Below, one piece after another: positions 8,631 to 18,275 of a DNA stretch of 64,000 nucleotides (the first letter of the stretch is position 1; every line of letters begins with the position of its first letter). The notes beneath the pieces were generated by a model. That model had not been told where the DNA came from and ran no database searches. It saw only the letters and a program-made list of their open reading frames with translations. The translations under genes and the position numbers were made by a program. The stretch spans positions 1-64,000 of the forward strand of contig CBDCTJ010000007.1 of assembly GCA_965222115.1 (NCBI GenBank). Reading direction: 5' to 3'. The DNA comes from Planctomycetota bacterium. GTDB lineage: Bacteria; Planctomycetota; PLA2; JAEUHO01.

Positions 8631-11600
8631 TTATGAGCAGCCGGAGGTGGCGCCGCAAGTCTCGCACTTGGTACACGATCCGTTACGCACCATCGTAAAC
8701 GAACCGCAATCGGTACACGCATCACCCGTATACCCCTGCAAACGCGCGCGCTCTTCCCGCGACATATCGCGCACGGCACGCGGCGACGCGCTGGAACGTG
8801 ACGTGAATCGGGGAGCAAAGGTCGGTGTCGACGCCGCCTCTTGCACAAACGAGGAGGCATCGGCTTCCTGCTCCAACACGTCGGCGCTGGTAACTCGGTC
8901 CTGCACCGCCATAGAAGACATGGAACCGTCGCTCGCTGCGGAAATTGCTACATCGGCGGCGAGCATCTCGGTGGCGCCATTCCCACAGCTCGTGCCATTG
9001 CCTGAGCCATTCCCCGCGCTAGCGGACTGAGACCTCGCCTGTGAACTTCTTGATTGTGAATTTAACGAGGGCGGCGTTGGTGCAACGCCGGGCGACACGG
9101 AATACCCTCGCTCGGCAGGCATTGAGCCATCGCCATGTGACGAGCCATCGCCATGTGACGAGCCATCGCCATGTGACGAGCCATCGCCATGTGACGACCC
9201 GGAAGACCCATTGCTACGGGATCGATCCAAACCACTGCTAGCCGGATGCATCTGTTGTTGCGAGAACACGCCGCGCGGCTGGCTCGACGACGGCCTCTCC
9301 GCCGCGGACTCATCGGAACGTACCGCATCGGGCTCGAGATCTTCAGACGTGACCTGCGAAAGATCGCGGCGATCCAAATAGGTGATCGCCAACTCCCGGA
9401 AGACGTAGTCGATCATGGACGTGGTCATCTTGATGCGATCGTTGCCCGATACTATGCCGTTGGGCTCAAAGCGCGTGAAGCAGAATGCATCGGTAAACTC
9501 GTCGAGCGGAACGCCGTATTGCAAACCGAGCGAAACAGCAATGGCGAAGCAGTTCATCAGGCTGCGGAAGGCCGCGCCCTCTTTGTGCATATCGATAAAG
9601 ATTTCGCCGAGCGTGCCGTCTTGGTACTCGCCAGTGCGCAAATACACCTTGTGCCCGCCAATCATAGCTTTCTGCGTATACCCTCCGCGACGCTGCGGCA
9701 AACGACGACGCTTACTCAAATAGCGCGTGACCACACGTTCGGTCGCCTCGGCCGCCACAGCCCTAATTGCATCTGCTGTAGATACGAATGTATCCGCTGT
9801 ACTCGGTACGGAGTCGCCTGCATCTGTGGCCGACGCATCCGATGCTTGCGTTTCTGGCGAGCCAGAGCGATCCAACTCGGCCTCCAGATCGTCGAGTTCA
9901 CCCACCGCCGAGCTAAGCGGCTGACTGAGCTTGCTGCCATCGCGATAGAGCGCCAGCGCCTTAATCATGAGTTTCCAAGACGCCGCGTAGGCCTCGCACA
10001 CGCCTTCCACCGTGGCCTCATGTGGCATATTGATGGTCTTGCTGATGGCACCCGAAATGAACGGTTGCGCCGCGGCCATTTGGCGAATGTGGCCCATGTG
10101 CGCAATGAAGCGCTTGCCATAACGACCGCAGCGATTGGCGCAATCAAAGACGGCCAAGTGCTCGTCTTTGAGGTGAGGCGCGCCTTCGATCGTCATGGTG
10201 CCGCAAATGTGATCGTTGGCGGCTTGCACCTGCTCGCTGTCAAAGCCCAAGTGATCGAGCAAATCAAACGATGGATCTTCGTAGACCACCTTTGGCAATC
10301 CCAACGTGGTGCCCAAGAACTCCTCACCCAGCGTCCACCGGTTGAATACGAATGAAATGTCGAATGCGGAGGGCAGTTGCTTTTGAATCTTGTCAATCGT
10401 CTTGTCGTCAAAGCCCTTCACGCGCAACGTGACATCGTTGATATGGGGCGCACCGTGAAGATCGCCGGTGCCCTTGATGTAGTGCACGATGTCGCCAACT
10501 TCGGTCTCGCTGTACCCCAACGCCGTGAGGGCGCGCGGCACCGAGCGATTGATAATGCGGAAATAGCCACCACCCGCGAGCTTCTTGAACTTCACCAATG
10601 CAAAATCGGGCTCAATACCGGTGGTGTCGCAGTCCATGACGAGGCCGATGGTGCCGGTGGGCGCCAACACGGTGGTTTGCGCATTGCGGTAGCCGTGCTT
10701 TTCGCCAAGCGACAACGCGCGGTCCCAAGCCTTCTTTGCACGCTTCAGCATGTACTTCGGGCACACGGATGGATCGATGCCCATGGGCGTAACGCTCAGT
10801 CCTTCGTATTCGGCATCCGATACATCGTAGGCCGCGCGGCGATGGTTGCGGATGACGCGCAACATGGACTCACGGTTGCGCTCGTAGGCCGGGAAGGGGC
10901 CCAACTCGTTGGCCATCTCTGCTGATGTGGCATACGACTGGCCACACAGCATGGACGTAATCGCGCCCGTCCACGCATTGCCTTCCTTGGAATCGTACGG
11001 AATGCCCATACGCATTAACAACGATCCGAGATTGGCATAGCCCAACCCGAGCGTGCGGAAGTCGTAGGAACGCTTCGCAATATTCTTGCTGGGGAACTGG
11101 GCCATCAAGACGGAGATCTCAAGCACGGTGGTCCAAATGCGTACCGCGTGCTCAAAATCGTCGACCTGGAACGTGCCCGTGGCGTCGTCGTAGAAACGCA
11201 CAAGATTCAAACTGGCCAAGTTGCAGGCCGTGTCGTCCAGGAACATGTACTCGGAACACGGATTGGACGCGTGAATGCGCCCGTCGGCCGGACATGTGTG
11301 CCACTCGTTGATGGTGGAATCAAATTGCACGCCCGGGTCGGCGCAAGACCACGCACTAAACGCAATACGCTGCCAGAGATCGCGCGCGTCAACGGTCTTG
11401 GACACGACCCCATCCGAACGGCGCAACAAATCCCACGGTCCGTCATTCTCAACGGCCTTCATGAACCGATTGGAAAGGCGAACGGAGTTGTTGGAGTTCT
11501 GTCCCGACACCGTAACGTAGGACTCGCTATCCCAATCGGTGGTGTAGGTGGGCACTTCGATGCCCGTAAAACCCTGCTGCGCGAGCGCAATGCAGCGCGA

Positions 11601-12632
11601 AACATAGTTGCTGGGAATGCATGCTTCCCGCGCGGCCAACGCCGCGGCACGCAAACGCTTGTTTTTGCGTACATTGAAACGCGCGTCGGCGTCGGGCCAC
11701 TCATTGCACGCGTCGAAGATGCCTTGGAGGCATCGCTGCATGGCGGTGGAACCGGCCACCAATGCGGCGACCTTTTGTTCTTCATTGACCTTCCAGTCGA
11801 TGAACGCTTCCACATCCGGATGATCGATGTCGAGACACACCATCTTCGCCGCGCGGCGCGTGGTGCCTCCCGACTTGATGGCGCCCGCCGCGCGATCGCC
11901 AATTTTCAAAAACGACATGAGCCCTGACGACTTGCCGCCTCCCGACAACGGTTCGCCCTCGCCACGAATGCGGCTGAAATTGCTGCCCGTGCCTGAGCCG
12001 TATTTAAAGAGGCGCGCCTCGCGGACCCAGAGATCCATGATGCCGTTCTCGTTGACCAAATCATCTTCGACGCGCTGAATGAAGCAGGCGTGGGGTTGCG
12101 GGCGTTCGTAGGCCGACTTGCTCTTGCGCACGCGACCCGTTTCGGGATCTACGTAGCTGTGACCCTGGGCGGGGCCGTCGATGCCATACGCAAAGTGGAG
12201 ACCCGTGTTGAACCACTGAGGGCTATTGGGCGCACAGCGCTGATCTGCCAGCATGCGGCAGAGTTCGTCATAAAAGGCCTTGGCATCGCTGTCGCGATCG
12301 AAGTAGCCGTAGCGCTTCCCCCAATCGGTCCAGCATCCGGCCAGGCGATGAAAGACCTGACGCGCGTCATGTTCGCCACCGAGGACGGGCTGACCGTCAT
12401 CATCTAGTAGCGGTTTACCTTTTTCACTTACTTGGGGGACACCTGCGCGCCGGAAATATTTCTGAGCAAGCACGTCGGTGGCCACCGACGACCACGTGGA
12501 GGGCACGTGAACCTGATCGAGCTTGAAGATGACCGTGCCATCGGGATTGCGAATCTCAGATGCCCGCGTCTCCCAGTTAATGCCCTCATACGGATCGCGA
12601 CCGGCAACCGTGAATCGACGTGCAAACTTCAT
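8631..12632 (-). CDS. nrdJ: Adenosylcobalamin-dependent (class II) ribonucleotide reductase
   Basis: [54 protein letters not shown]-like C-terminal region and terminal CxxC..CxxC..GCS; ATG 12632 with AGGAGG RBS. Confidence 0.97.
9124..9197. repeat. 4 x 18-bp perfect tandem repeat encoding (SSHGDG)4 in the NrdJ linker
   Basis: GAGCCATCGCCATGTGAC repeated four times, in frame. Confidence 0.95.
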
Positions 12633-12899
12633 GCATTCCCTCCTGAATCTTCGAATCGACTCGCCGCCCAAACCCGGGCACGCGACCAATCACGCGACGA
12701 AACGGGCCATTCGAATGACGGACATCCGGGCGCACGCCGCCCCGCCGCCTGCTATGGAGTAGCTGCGGCATGACTACGGCGTGGCTCGCGCTCGGAATCC
12801 GACGCTTGAACCAAGTCAAAGCAAGGGCCGAGCTGGCCCGACTTTGAGAAACTGCCTGACTTTGAGTATTTGCCCCAGAAATGAATCTGTGACACGAAA

Positions 12900-13279: not shown

Positions 13280-13876
13280 ATGATTGCCAGCGACAAGTGG
13301 ATTCGTGAACAGGCGCAGAAGCATCGCATGATCGACCCCTTTTGCGAGGACTTGGTGACCGAGGGCAAGATCTCGTATGGACTCTCAAGTTACGGATACG
13401 ACATCCGCGTGAGCGATCACTTCAAGATCTTCCACAATCTCAACAACACGCTGGTGGACCCCAAGGCGTTTGACCCCAAGTCCTTCATCGATCACCGGGG
13501 TGACTGCATAATTCCGCCGAATTCGTTCGTATTGGCCGAGACGGTGGAGCATTTCCGTATTCCGCGAGGCGTGCTATGCGTGTGTGTTGGCAAATCCACC
13601 TATGCGCGCTGCGGGATGATTGTGAACGTGACGCCGCTCGAGCCCGAATGGGAAGGGGTGCTCACGCTTGAAATCAGCAATACGACGCCGCTACCCGCCA
13701 AGGTGTATGCCGGCGAGGGCATCGCGCAGATTCTCTTCTTCCACGGCGACCAAGTGTGCGAAACGAGCTATCGGGATCGCAAGGGGAAGTACCAGGATCA
13801 GCCGGGGCTCACGTTGCCCAAGATTGCTGGCGCAACCGCCGATGGGCAAGCCACCGCCGCGCCAATCACCCAATAG
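13280..13876 (+). CDS. dcd: dCTP deaminase
   Basis: [50 protein letters not shown]; ATG 13280 with GAGGAG RBS. Confidence 0.96.
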
Positions 13877-14452
13877 TTGCTCTCAATCTCGGCCGACACG
13901 TGCTTACTCAAATCCACCTACTCAGATGCACCCTCTCATACGCGCCTTCTCAAGTGCGCTAAGCCCATAAAACGGGCGAAATCAACGAGTTACAGCACTT
14001 TCGCTGCATCAATCGGGTCGGCCTACGTGCCGCATAGGATCCCGCGGTCACCTGGTTTGACGGGCACTCCATGGGGACGCCGTCCTGTGCATGGCACGCC
14101 GCCCCCTGCTGGGCACGCGTCTCGAAGTGCCACTTCCGAGTACGTACGAACGCGGTGAAACGATGCGCGCACATAATGGGCTCGCATCGAAAAGTACGAA
14201 AAACGAGTTCGCAGCGCCGCCTAGCCCTCAAATTTTGCATGAACACGTGTAGCTCCCGCCTGTTAGATTCCCTCGCACATGGGCGCTATTTGCCCATGGC
14301 GACCCGTTCGCGGCGCTTCTGCGTTGCACGCGGCGTCGCGCGGAAGGGCGGCTTGTCAGAACATGTCCGCACCTTGCAGTCAGGTTCTAGTCACACATTC
14401 CACGTCCCAGAAGGAACCTGCCTCGTTGTACGGAGGTGGGTAGGAGTCCGTT

Positions 14453-14698
14453 ATGGCAGCCAGAAGAAGAAAGAAGAAGAAGGCCCGTCGAAAGAAGAAG
14501 GCGTCACGTCGTCGTTCGACCGCAGCACTTAACGTCGTTGTGGGTTCAAAGGTCAAAGAAACCATCAAGAGTTACAACGTTCGTTGCTCCGGCGACATGG
14601 TTGAAGCACTCAACGCACACGTGCACGGCATTTTGAAGCAAGCCGTCGAGCGTTGCATTGCCAACAAGCGCGGTACGGTTCGTCCGCAAGACCTCTAA
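14453..14698 (+). CDS. Bacterial histone-fold protein (short alpha3 type) with basic N-terminal tail
   Basis: Core VVVGSKVKETIKSYNVRCSGDMVEALNAHVHGILKQAVERCIANKRGTVRPQDL shows the alpha1-L1-alpha2-L2 layout and the RxTxxxxD histone signature; AGGAG RBS; own terminator. Confidence 0.9.
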   Translation: MAARRRKKKKARRKKKASRRRSTAALNVVVGSKVKETIKSYNVRCSGDMVEALNAHVHGILKQAVERCIANKRGTVRPQDL

Positions 14699-14737
14699 GC
14701 CAACGCTTTCACATAGGCCTATCCAATAGGCAAATCC

Positions 14738-14774
14738 GAAACACCGCGTGGTACGGCACGCGGTGTTTCTTTTT
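14738..14774 (+). terminator. Rho-independent terminator of the histone gene
   Basis: GAAACACCGCGTG-gtacgg-CACGCGGTGTTTC followed by TTTTT. Confidence 0.85.
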
Positions 14775-14819
14775 GTTCACCCTGCGTAATGCGTCAAAAC
14801 ACCTGGTTTCTGTCGCGCA

Positions 14820-15677
14820 TTAGGCGAGGAAGGTGGCGTCTTCACGCAATGACATTTCGAGGCCGCGCCAGAGTGACTTGACGATGGAGGGGACGTCTTT
14901 GCCTTCATAGACCACGGTACGGTCGGTGTTGCCAAGATTGCCTTCGCCCGTTTCGAGTGCACGCGCGGCCATCTGACGACGGTGATAGTCCACTTCAATC
15001 GATAGCGGTGGCTCAAGTCGAAAGGGCTTACGTTCCTTGCGTGCTTCGACGGCTTCTTTCGCGGCGACGAGGATCAGTTCCTGTGCTCGCCTGGGTGTGA
15101 GGCTTGCACACGCCGTCGCTCCAAGTGCTTTCTTCGTTTCGACAACACGCAGATCCTTGCCAAGATCGCCTTGCACTTCGCGACACAAATCGTCAGCGCC
15201 TGTAACCAGCACCACCGGTACCCCGAAGTGGCCGACAATGGCGGCGTTAAGTGTGACTTCGCCCGCGGGCACCCCCTGCAAACGAATCTCGTGCACGCGG
15301 GCGCCCACCCACGTGTGAGACAAAAGGCCGCCGGGCGTGCCCGCACGGGAATGAAAGCCAATCATGATGCAGGCGTCAAAGGTGTCGTGTTCGATGCCGG
15401 TTACCTGAATCAGCGGCTTGTTGGACGACGTGGCAGGGCCTACGACCAGTCGAGAGGCGGGGTGCAATTCATCGATGAGGAGATTTCTCATCGTTGCGTG
15501 CCCATCGTTTACCCAAACTTCCTCAGCGCCCGCTTCGACCGCTCCTTTAACGGCTGCGTTCACCTCGCCCGTAAACCAGCGGCGCGCAGCGGCGTAGTCG
15601 TTGCCTCCGGGGACCAAATGGTCTCGATGCGAGACGCCGGCCACGCCTTCCATGTCGGCCGAAATGAACACCTTCAT
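14820..15677 (-). CDS. M55-family D-aminopeptidase (DppA-like)
   Basis: MKVFISADMEGVAG, VNDGH..MRNL, GFHSRAG, LLSHT, GE..LNA, VTGADD. Confidence 0.92.
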   Translation of the reverse strand: MKVFISADMEGVAGVSHRDHLVPGGNDYAAARRWFTGEVNAAVKGAVEAGAEEVWVNDGHATMRNLLIDELHPASRLVVGPATSSNKPLIQVTGIEHDTFDACIMIGFHSRAGTPGGLLSHTWVGARVHEIRLQGVPAGEVTLNAAIVGHFGVPVVLVTGADDLCREVQGDLGKDLRVVETKKALGATACASLTPRRAQELILVAAKEAVEARKERKPFRLEPPLSIEVDYHRRQMAARALETGEGNLGNTDRTVVYEGKDVPSIVKSLWRGLEMSLREDATFLA

Positions 15678-16370: not shown

Positions 16371-18275
16371 TTACTTCTTGGAGTTGTCCAGCAGCCCGAG
16401 CACCAGTGCGTGTTCCATCAACTTGATCTTGGCAACAGCTGAATGATCGGCGGGTAGTGACGCAACGATTTCCTTAAGCAGTTCAAGCGTTGCATTGGCT
16501 CCACGAAGCACGACAGGTACGCGGAATAGGTTTGCGGCAGACTCGGCGGTGTGCTCCTTTAGATCTTCGTCACTGAAGCGTTGCATGAAACGCCCAATAG
16601 CGCCTTCCAGATTCGCCATCTCTCCGTCGTTTAGACCCACATGTTGCTTTACGGCACTCTGAACGCGCGTCGTCAAGAACTCACGCGTGCCGCCAAACAG
16701 CGGATGCACGTGCATTTGCCAGATCAATCCCGATGACATGAGATCCAATCCGCAGAGGCCACGAATACTCTCGGGGTGGACGATTTCCACCTGCTCGGGA
16801 TCGAGCAACTTATCAAGTTCATCGAAGAAATTCTGCTTGATGGTGGATTCTTGAATGCGGGCTTCAAGGGCATAGGTGATCTTGTTGCGATTCTTCTCAA
16901 ACTCATCGATACGCTCGAGATACACGTTGCCGAGTTCGGAAACTGCCTTTCGCTGATCTTCGCTAAGCGGCTTCTCCGCTGCTGTGAGCGCGGAGTCCAC
17001 CAGATTCACGTAGATGGCGGGATGAGTAAACGCGCCATTGATGCCTTTACCAGGCACGCCTGCTTTATGTGCAGACGACGCCACGTGAATCAGGTTCATA
17101 TTTAGTTCCTGAAGTTTCCTGCTAAAGGATGGATCTTGCAACAACTTCATGTTCCCAGAAGCTTTTATCATCATTGGGACCATGGCCGTATAGGCGGAGG
17201 CCGCGCTCTTCCAGTCCACTCGCGCAAACACACCCTTGTACTTGTCGTACGCGAACGCCACGTCACTGCCCCTGTCTTCGCCATCGCCCCCCATCGCCTG
17301 AATGCGCGATTTCAATGTCTCGATCTCTTTGGCCAGTGCCTGAGCCTTGGATTCGGCTTCCTTGCGAAGCGCCGTTTCATTTGACAACTTGCGCGTGACT
17401 TGCGTCACTTCGTCGTCGCCCTCGAGCGTTGGATTGCCATGCTCTTCGTTCGATTGCGGTGCAGTTAGGGACTCGTCTTCATGGTGCGTATTCGCCTGAG
17501 CCTCGTCGGTTGAGTCAGCCGAACGCTTTTGCACCTCCGTGCCCGCAAAGAATCCAATCGCACCTACGGCGGCGGCGATGGCAACTACAGATTTGATACC
17601 CACGATAGAACCTCCAATGACTTGGGCCGCGGTGGCCGCGGCAGCTACGTGAGCTCCCGCGGTCCAGGCAGCGGCACCCGAACTGGCTGTTGTGGTCACA
17701 CTCGACGCCAAGGTTGCGCCCGTCGCGATGTCCTTCCACGCGCCCGCCATCGGCACCAGCGCGAGCTCCCATCGCATCGATCGATTCGCGTATACCGCAT
17801 CGAGCATCTCAGCGAGGCGCTTACGCGCGCGGCGAAGACGCGATTCGATCGTGCGCACCGAAACGCCGGCGCGCTGCGCGATCTCGGAGGGCGAAAGCCC
17901 ATCGAAGTAGCGCAACACGATGGCCGAGCGACCCGGCTCTTCGAGCTTCGCGATGGCGGTTGCCAAGTGTCGTTGCCCTTCGGTTCGCTCGGCGATCTCC
18001 GCTGTGGACGGAAGGCGCTCGGAACGCGCCACTCGCTGGTGGCGGGCGCGGCGACGCACACGCGTGCGGATGAGCTTCTTGGCCTTGTTACGCACCACGC
18101 CGCTCAACCACGCCGACGAACGTTGTTCGCTGCGATCTTCCAGGGCAGCCACATAGGCGTCCTGCACAACGTCTTCCGCAGCAAAGCGATCGCGCACCAT
18201 GCGCTGGGCCAAGCTCAGCAATACGGCGTGGTGCTTTACGAGCACGTCCGGGGCAATGCTCTTGCGACTAGACAC
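16371..18275 (-). CDS. ECF sigma-70 factor fused to a TM helix and a long C-terminal extension
   Basis: AEDVVQDAY and WLSGVVRN (region 2); IVLRYFDGLSPSEIA..VRTIESRLRRAR (region 4); hydrophobic segment near aa 215-245, then a coiled-coil/helical domain. Confidence 0.88.
   Translation of the reverse strand: MSSRKSIAPDVLVKHHAVLLSLAQRMVRDRFAAEDVVQDAYVAALEDRSEQRSSAWLSGVVRNKAKKLIRTRVRRRARHQRVARSERLPSTAEIAERTEGQRHLATAIAKLEEPGRSAIVLRYFDGLSPSEIAQRAGVSVRTIESRLRRARKRLAEMLDAVYANRSMRWELALVPMAGAWKDIATGATLASSVTTTASSGAAAWTAGAHVAAAATAAQVIGGSIVGIKSVVAIAAAVGAIGFFAGTEVQKRSADSTDEAQANTHHEDESLTAPQSNEEHGNPTLEGDDEVTQVTRKLSNETALRKEAESKAQALAKEIETLKSRIQAMGGDGEDRGSDVAFAYDKYKGVFARVDWKSAASAYTAMVPMMIKASGNMKLLQDPSFSRKLQELNMNLIHVASSAHKAGVPGKGINGAFTHPAIYVNLVDSALTAAEKPLSEDQRKAVSELGNVYLERIDEFEKNRNKITYALEARIQESTIKQNFFDELDKLLDPEQVEIVHPESIRGLCGLDLMSSGLIWQMHVHPLFGGTREFLTTRVQSAVKQHVGLNDGEMANLEGAIGRFMQRFSDEDLKEHTAESAANLFRVPVVLRGANATLELLKEIVASLPADHSAVAKIKLMEHALVLGLLDNSKK

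Follow-up and report, generated by a model that had tools for sequence, protein, structure and literature searches.

A short open reading frame in the window, by which we mean the whole 64,000-nucleotide stretch of Planctomycetota DNA analysed here, raises the question of whether this bacterium encodes a histone with a basic tail and, if so, what the tail might do. The frame starts with ATG and its product has 81 residues (9.1 kDa, pI 11.6). A sequence-only reading of the locus had placed a histone fold at residues ~26–81, preceded by a tail that could help to compact or bridge DNA and be regulated through modification of Lys, Arg and Ser. The gene is present as a single copy in the 4.55-Mb genome, which was searched with the protein, and neither a second histone nor a ZZ-type histone was found there with the protein, the family profile or PF00808.

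The histone fold is well supported. In the AF2 model, residues 28–81 have pLDDT values >90 and form helices α1 (31–40) and α2 (49–70) and a one-turn α3 (78–80), the truncation that marks the face-to-face (FtF)/α3 superfamily. The best phmmer match in the PDB is HLp of Leptospira perolatii (9qt0, E 1.2e-8). A family profile built from 34 homologues reaches HLp at E 4e-20, HTkC of Thermococcus kodakarensis (9f2c) at 1.7e-12, HBb of Bdellovibrio bacteriovorus at 3.5e-10 and NF-YB at about 8e-3. Foldseek returns the same order for the model, with HLp first (9qt1/9qt0; TM 0.95, rmsd 0.7–0.8 Å, 43% identity over the fold), followed by HTkC (0.92) and HBb (0.83–0.86). The fold proposed by the sequence-only reading is thus confirmed by both the HLp matches and the superposition.

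The HMM comparison suggested in that reading gave a divided result. The matches to HLp and HTkC are strong, but the Pfam histone models CBFD_NFYB_HMF (PF00808; 14.0 bits against a gathering cut-off of 21.4, E 0.061) and Histone (PF00125; 15.7 bits against 26.4, E 0.018) stay below their cut-offs. PF09123, which covers the DUF1931 pseudodimeric histones, is absent from the matches at E up to 10; the protein is a single fold of 54 residues, and the term "DUF1931" comes into the 9qt0 record only as a label chosen by its depositors. We consider the Pfam models too distant for this family, whose homology to histones is shown by the matches to HLp and HTkC and by the profile matches to NF-YB.

In the sections of Schwab et al. 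2024 (PMC11390915) drawn on here, FtF histones are defined by a predicted closed tetramer and the signature R-x3-N-x-R-x-T-x4-D, with the C-terminal carboxylate one residue further on. The present protein carries R67, N71, R73, T75 and D80, all invariant in the 34 aligned homologues, followed by L81 as the last residue. In the alignment the five correspond to HLp R49, N53, R55, T57 and D62, of which R49, N53 and R55 make dimer-dimer contacts (Hu et al. 2025, PMC12701072). The RxTxxxxD motif, combining the RD clamp and the L2 threonine, reads R73-G-T75-V-R-P-Q-D80. The chain ends one residue past the clamp Asp (D80-L81-stop), and 29 of the 34 aligned sequences stop at the same column; four subclade members in the alignment carry three extra C-terminal residues. 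In HTkC, a toroidal tetramer that wraps and compacts DNA, a conserved Arg binds the opposing C-terminal carboxylate, and the R45A change yields a dimer.

A four-copy model of residues 24–81 scores 0.92, while the best of three controls scores 0.02. At least 98% of contacts are common to the runs, and the partner pLDDT is no lower than 94. In calibration of the tool, 20 of 30 solved pairs attained the mark, as did 1 of 23 single chains. The modelled dimer-dimer contacts lie at residues 66–67, 70–71, 73 and 77–80, which are the HLp interface positions. We read the score as a sign of likeness and not of assembly, since the model may have been drawing on FtF tetramers already solved. Structure prediction had been proposed as a check, and the single-chain model bears out the fold.

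Six of the nine HLp DNA-contact residues are identical in the present protein (S32, K33, K35, K39, G47 and T75). The three that differ are A13, T27 and T56 of HLp, replaced by G31, C45 and G74, and two secondary tetramer contacts change as well (S52 to A70, T61 to Q79). On the combined weight of sequence and modelling, we assign the protein to the bacterial FtF histones of the α3-truncated superfamily. The dimer histones, according to the same sections of Schwab et al. 2024 (PMC11390915), have neither the FtF Arg nor the Asn and carry RKT in L2. Assignment to this HBb-like type was rejected, as R67 and N71 are present and L2 contains RGT.

Table 1. Features of the histone gene and its flanks, in window coordinates.
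Feature	Position	Strand	Description
Spacer between dcd and histone gene	13877..14452	none	576 bp
Shine-Dalgarno sequence AGGAG	14442..14446	+	6 nt before the ATG; read from the sequence
Histone gene	14453..14698	+	81 codons plus stop; from the ORF list, with PDB and profile matches to HLp
N-terminal tail, residues 1–27 (MAARRRKKKKARRKKKASRRRSTAALN)	14453..14533	+	15 K/R, no D/E; low-confidence prediction
Imperfect 21-nt (7-codon) tandem duplication in the tail	14469..14511	+	RKKKKAR / RKKKASR; found with TRF
Histone fold, residues 28–81	14534..14695	+	AF2 model, Foldseek, invariant columns and four-copy model
Intrinsic-terminator-like hairpin and T-run	14738..14779	+	13-bp stem with 8 G-C pairs and a 6-nt loop, then TTTTTGTTCA

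The surroundings of the gene largely match the earlier description, which had named an AGGAG ribosome-binding site, some 575 bp of non-coding DNA upstream and a dedicated terminator; all three are found (Table 1), the last as a terminator-like element. Its hairpin proper spans 14738–14769, 40 nt 3' of the gene, and is followed by TTTTTGTT. On the 5' side lies the dCTP deaminase gene dcd (Pfam DCD) on the + strand, ending at 13876, and on the 3' side a gene for an M55 D-aminopeptidase on the opposite strand, convergent with the histone gene. The claim that the gene is monocistronic is plausible, given its own Shine-Dalgarno sequence and terminator and a convergent downstream neighbour, but a consensus scan of the upstream region found no sigma-70-like promoter site, and the stretch scanned showed no terminator behind dcd.

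The spacer presumably holds the promoter and a 5' leader. A scan of 13700–14900 gave no Rfam match at E up to 1, and the spacer neither recurs in the genome nor has a counterpart of similar sequence in 80 related loci. The gap between dcd and the histone gene is just ~150 bp in loci L007 and L008. Because the spacer is not conserved and can be this short, the long upstream region is not a feature of the family.

The count of 15 K/R in the first 21 residues, on which the idea of a tail was originally based, is correct (8 R and 7 K). The tail has a net charge of +15, the fold one of +4. Its pLDDT is about 55 over residues 1–20, so that by charge and by prediction it resembles a basic N-terminal extension of the disordered type; disorder is likely on the strength of the model. 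TRF reports the tandem duplication with period 21, 2.0 copies, 81% matches and a score of 58, a weak signal in low-complexity sequence. This duplication may account for the extra length of the tail.

Conservation of the tail had been named as a check, and the tail passes it. Among 117 matched database homologues, 115 could be scored, and 114 of these have a basic tail, with a median of 22 residues and 10 K/R. Length ranges from 11 to 36 residues and varies by whole codons, and the number of K/R ranges from 3 to 16. With 27 residues and 15 K/R, the present tail is among the three most basic of the 115. The first seven residues are strongly conserved, as a start of the type MAAR[KR]KK is found in 112 of the 115.

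Could the basic frame be an annotation artefact, with translation starting internally, for example from a GTG at V30? There is a precedent in HLp, where Hu et al. 2025 (PMC12701072) rejected a 77-residue form since the Shine-Dalgarno sequence fits a shorter start. Applied to the present gene, the same test supports the longer product, because AGGAG lies 6 nt before the tail ATG and the ATG-GCN-GCN start is kept. We examined the 17 closest loci; in all 16 retrieved, ATG-GCN-GCN is preceded by GGAG at most 20 nt upstream, and the seventeenth was missed by the search pattern. The seven-residue motif and the codon-wise changes in tail length speak against an internal start as well, and we regard it as highly improbable. 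The tail is, as far as comparative sequence evidence goes, translated and conserved.

Within its own order, the gene is close to universal. Among the order's other genomes it turned up in 34 of 35 (23 of 24 and 11 of 11 in two families), and the single miss is a genome that is 57% complete. It was not found in five genomes of other families searched alongside. In a sample of the phylum Planctomycetota, 118 of 251 genomes have it. The pattern in the order is one of vertical persistence, judged from these sequence searches.

To follow the tail more widely, 80 related loci were taken from one-genome-per-species contigs, with group labels that we assigned. An ATG-based rule finds a basic tail in at least 51 of the 80: 30 of 35 loci in Planctomycetota, 6 of 6 in Acidobacteriota, 11 of 18 in Myxococcota, 3 of 4 in Bdellovibrionota, 0 of 4 in Patescibacteria, 0 of 4 in Archaea and 1 of 9 in other or unclassified groups. 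This rule undercounts, as it misses the basic tails of L020, L061, L069 and L085; a start-agnostic rule gives 62 tailed loci of 81, window included. On a tree of the fold, the tailed state clusters, requiring 7 changes where shuffled states need 17.3 (none of 500 shuffles goes as low), although with 56 columns this tree is poorly resolved.

The histone neighbourhood contains a class II ribonucleotide reductase (RNR) gene in 14 loci, dcd in four and an M55 peptidase in four. In 14 close loci (among L007–L021 and the window) the histone gene is divergent from the RNR gene and lies about 1–2 kb from its start, with dcd between them in only four; the arrangement is synteny at the level of the clade. 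In the window, the RNR gene occupies 8631–12689 on the - strand, farther out from the histone gene. It contains a perfect 18-nt tandem repeat of 4.1 copies at 9124–9197, encoding GSSHGD repeats that belong to a long insertion, rich in Ser and Gly, close to the C-terminal part of the enzyme. On the other side of the histone gene, 16371–18275 (- strand) encodes an ECF-type sigma factor, with regions 2 and 4 in the first 160 residues, fused to a C-terminal extension of ~470 residues that has no Pfam match.

The homologue searches also returned many relatives of 117–130 residues (P0118–P0131 and others) with two FtF-like folds in tandem, which from their sequences appear to be doublet or pseudodimeric forms of this histone type. 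They match Pfam DUF1931 only below threshold. One is encoded in a genome of the same family (G013, contig C21:405814-406170), beside the normal single copy. P0127, a protein of 2798 residues with a type IX secretion CHU_C signal domain, has 8 stretches that match the histone query (E 8.6e-12); these matches probably stem from repeats or from segments of low complexity. Outside the window, a 48-kb contig of the assembly (C6, with L090 = C6:19000-38999) has 37–44% G+C against 59% for the genome. Its large ORFs all share a strand; among their products are a family A DNA polymerase that has a 3'-5' exonuclease, and a large protein carrying a DnaG-type zinc ribbon. The contig has the look of foreign DNA, from a phage or another source, that ended up in the bin of this genome.

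High expression had been suggested from codons rich in CGT, GTT and GGT. The counts themselves stand (CGT for 7 of 12 Arg, GTT for 4 of 9 Val, GGT for 2 of 4 Gly), but the conclusion drawn from them is weak, as the CAI of the whole gene is 0.57, the 27th percentile of 1554 long ORFs. The reference set comprised 23 ORFs of the ribosomal-protein cluster, located through a Pfam L2 match and otherwise assigned by position and sequence. The result depends on the part that is scored: the fold part reaches 0.71 (96th percentile, equal to the ribosomal-protein mean), the tail, with three rare AGA codons and one CGA, only 0.35. At 54–81 codons it also lies within about one sd of random windows, and we give it no weight as support for expression.

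Low codon adaptation of the whole gene counts against a role in chromatin, as does the presence of two ordinary HU/IHF-type genes in the genome. Because of the latter, the histone may not be the chief protein of the nucleoid, in contrast to the situation in Leptospira. The same two observations would fit a protein that uses the histone fold for a different purpose, for example as a specific regulator of low abundance or to bind RNA. Against this, the FtF architecture is kept in full together with most DNA-contact residues. The gene also resembles the Leptospira homologue, which published papers describe as essential, in being single-copy and carried by almost every genome of the order. We consider a function other than general DNA architecture very unlikely.

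While the tail itself is clearly conserved, its proposed regulation by modification of Lys, Arg or Ser finds little support. If the tail were a regulated platform, phosphorylation, methylation or acetylation of its Ser/Thr or lysines would tune DNA binding. The pattern [RK][RK]x[ST] is indeed found in 69 of 115 tails, compared with 35.8 (sd 4.5) in shuffled tails, none of 1000 shuffles being as high, and Ser/Thr in the tails peaks 8–10 residues before the fold. The shuffle test overstates this signal because the sequences are kin, and the exact RRRST site of the present protein, which had been singled out, is not conserved in homologues. Potential writers are also at hand, with 49 Pkinase matches in the genome, 45 of them above the cut-off, and two small proteins with a SET domain. 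The kinases are numerous and generic in the genome, and a census of 1176 neighbouring ORFs in the 80 loci found no conserved modifier-like neighbour. Neighbour clusters present in at least eight loci are all confined to the close Planctomycetota loci L007–L023, and their representatives are class II RNR, DUF1573, an epimerase, a GAF protein or proteins with no Pfam match.

The two SET-domain proteins are encoded at L088:1342-1881 (- strand, contig C1; 179 residues) and L089:1486-1893 (- strand, contig C7; 135 residues as called). In the second ORF a basic MAAKKRASSKRK stretch comes after an internal Met, which may be the true start. The family is found in 64 of the 251 Planctomycetota genomes sampled and in 1 of 14 control genomes. 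A SET methyltransferase as a dedicated writer of the tail was rejected, as the domain is found in 24 of the 118 genomes that have the histone and in 40 of the 133 that do not (odds ratio 0.59); in the sister family it was found in none of five genomes, though all five have the histone.

A tail serving as a regulated platform is, on this evidence, unlikely. The enrichment of Ser/Thr in a basic context, which is seen in sequence comparison, is a weak lead for modification. In a more specific form, the semi-conserved Ser/Thr in a basic context, located 8–10 residues ahead of the fold, and lysines in the MAAR[KR]KK head would be modified reversibly, for instance by one of the many Hanks-type kinases of the genome, switching the tetramer between tight and loose packing of DNA. 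We rate this as distinctly unlikely; if true, control through histone tails would have arisen in bacteria independently of Asgard archaea and eukaryotes.

It is probable that the protein forms an FtF toroidal tetramer that wraps DNA, with tails that most likely raise affinity, stabilise wrapping and help packing. On this view two handshake dimers would join to give a toroidal homotetramer, held together by R67, N71 and R73 and by the carboxylate at the C-terminus of L81. DNA would be bound non-specifically on the α1/L1/L2 surface and wrapped round the ring, as was measured for HTkC and for the bacterial FtF histone HLp, a tetramer that takes about 60 bp of DNA around it (Hu et al. 2025, PMC12701072). 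To this ring each subunit would add a roughly 25-residue, probably disordered tail of charge +15, predicted to leave the fold at the N-terminal end of α1, a site of DNA contact in HLp. Together the four tails would bring +60 to each tetramer. Most likely they would strengthen its hold on DNA and neutralise phosphate charge, making the wrapped state more stable and helping neighbouring complexes to pack closely. Of the role first proposed for the protein, compaction of DNA is likely by homology to HLp and HTkC. We infer the part played by the tail from its charge and position alone, as we infer wrapping and abundance.

It is also conceivable, if somewhat unlikely, that the tails act mainly in trans, like protamines or the basic domains of linker histones, bridging separate DNA segments or condensing the nucleoid, and that they, and not the wrapped tetramer, produce the main architectural effect of the protein. 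A charge of +15 in 27 probably disordered residues with no acidic residue would suit this, as would the arrangement of four tails pointing away from one ring. Free variation in length and charge among homologues is what would be expected if bulk charge outweighs exact sequence. HLp and HTkC, in contrast, compact DNA without such tails. Action in trans is compatible with our preferred explanation, a wrapping tetramer whose tails add affinity and help packing, and the two are not exclusive.

How does the protein compare with known histones? The closest is HLp (PDB 9QT0/9QT1/9QT2), with which it shares the short α2, the one-turn α3, the tetramer residues, the RD clamp and the position of the C-terminus. 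HLp as characterised has only ~10 residues before the fold, 6–7 of them unseen in crystals, whereas the present protein has 27. Leptospira also differs in having no HU, and its histone is syntenic with SMC and MAP, an arrangement not seen here. HTkC is likewise of the FtF type but has no tail. Archaeal FtF histones are generally tail-free in the sections of Schwab et al. 2024 (PMC11390915) used here, in line with the four archaeal relatives above. HBb (Bd0055) has the α3-truncated fold and the RD clamp in common with the present protein, which differs from this dimer type at the positions described above and matches it more weakly than the FtF histones.

The tailed histones of eukaryotes and Asgard archaea share with the present protein a basic, probably disordered N-terminal extension before a histone fold. 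Their tails show no detectable sequence relationship to the present one, and they assemble into octamers or hypernucleosomes, whereas the predicted assembly here is a closed homotetramer. Writers, erasers and readers, as known for eukaryote-type tails, were not found tied to the present histone. The Asgard chromatin paper does not mention bacterial histones, and the literature searched contained no bench study of a bacterial histone tail.

The sequence-only reading had assumed that FtF α3 histones are essentially tail-less. This is true of the bench-characterised bacterial histones, HBb and HLp in its 63-residue form, which are nearly so, and a portion of Hocher et al. 2023 reports that histone genes persist in Planctomycetota and that most bacterial singlets have no long tails. 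As a general premise it is refuted by the sections of Schwab et al. 2024 (PMC11390915) cited here, which list FtF histones in Planctomycetota among other phyla and describe tails as common, mostly positively charged and H3-like. The MAAR[KR]KK tail of the clade may already appear in Supplementary Figs 13, 19 and 20 of that paper. Tailed bacterial FtF histones were thus described in 2024, and the present protein adds a good example to them without introducing another type of chromatin; where histones and their tails are known to occur among organisms stays as it was. It belongs to exactly the class catalogued there, and is set apart from the tails in the cited sections by the strong conservation of the first seven residues within its clade. 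With +15 in 27 residues, a well-supported start, intact tetramer residues and a gene that is near-universal in its order, it is a clean, strongly tailed example, and for these reasons a convenient one for asking what the tails of bacterial FtF histones do.
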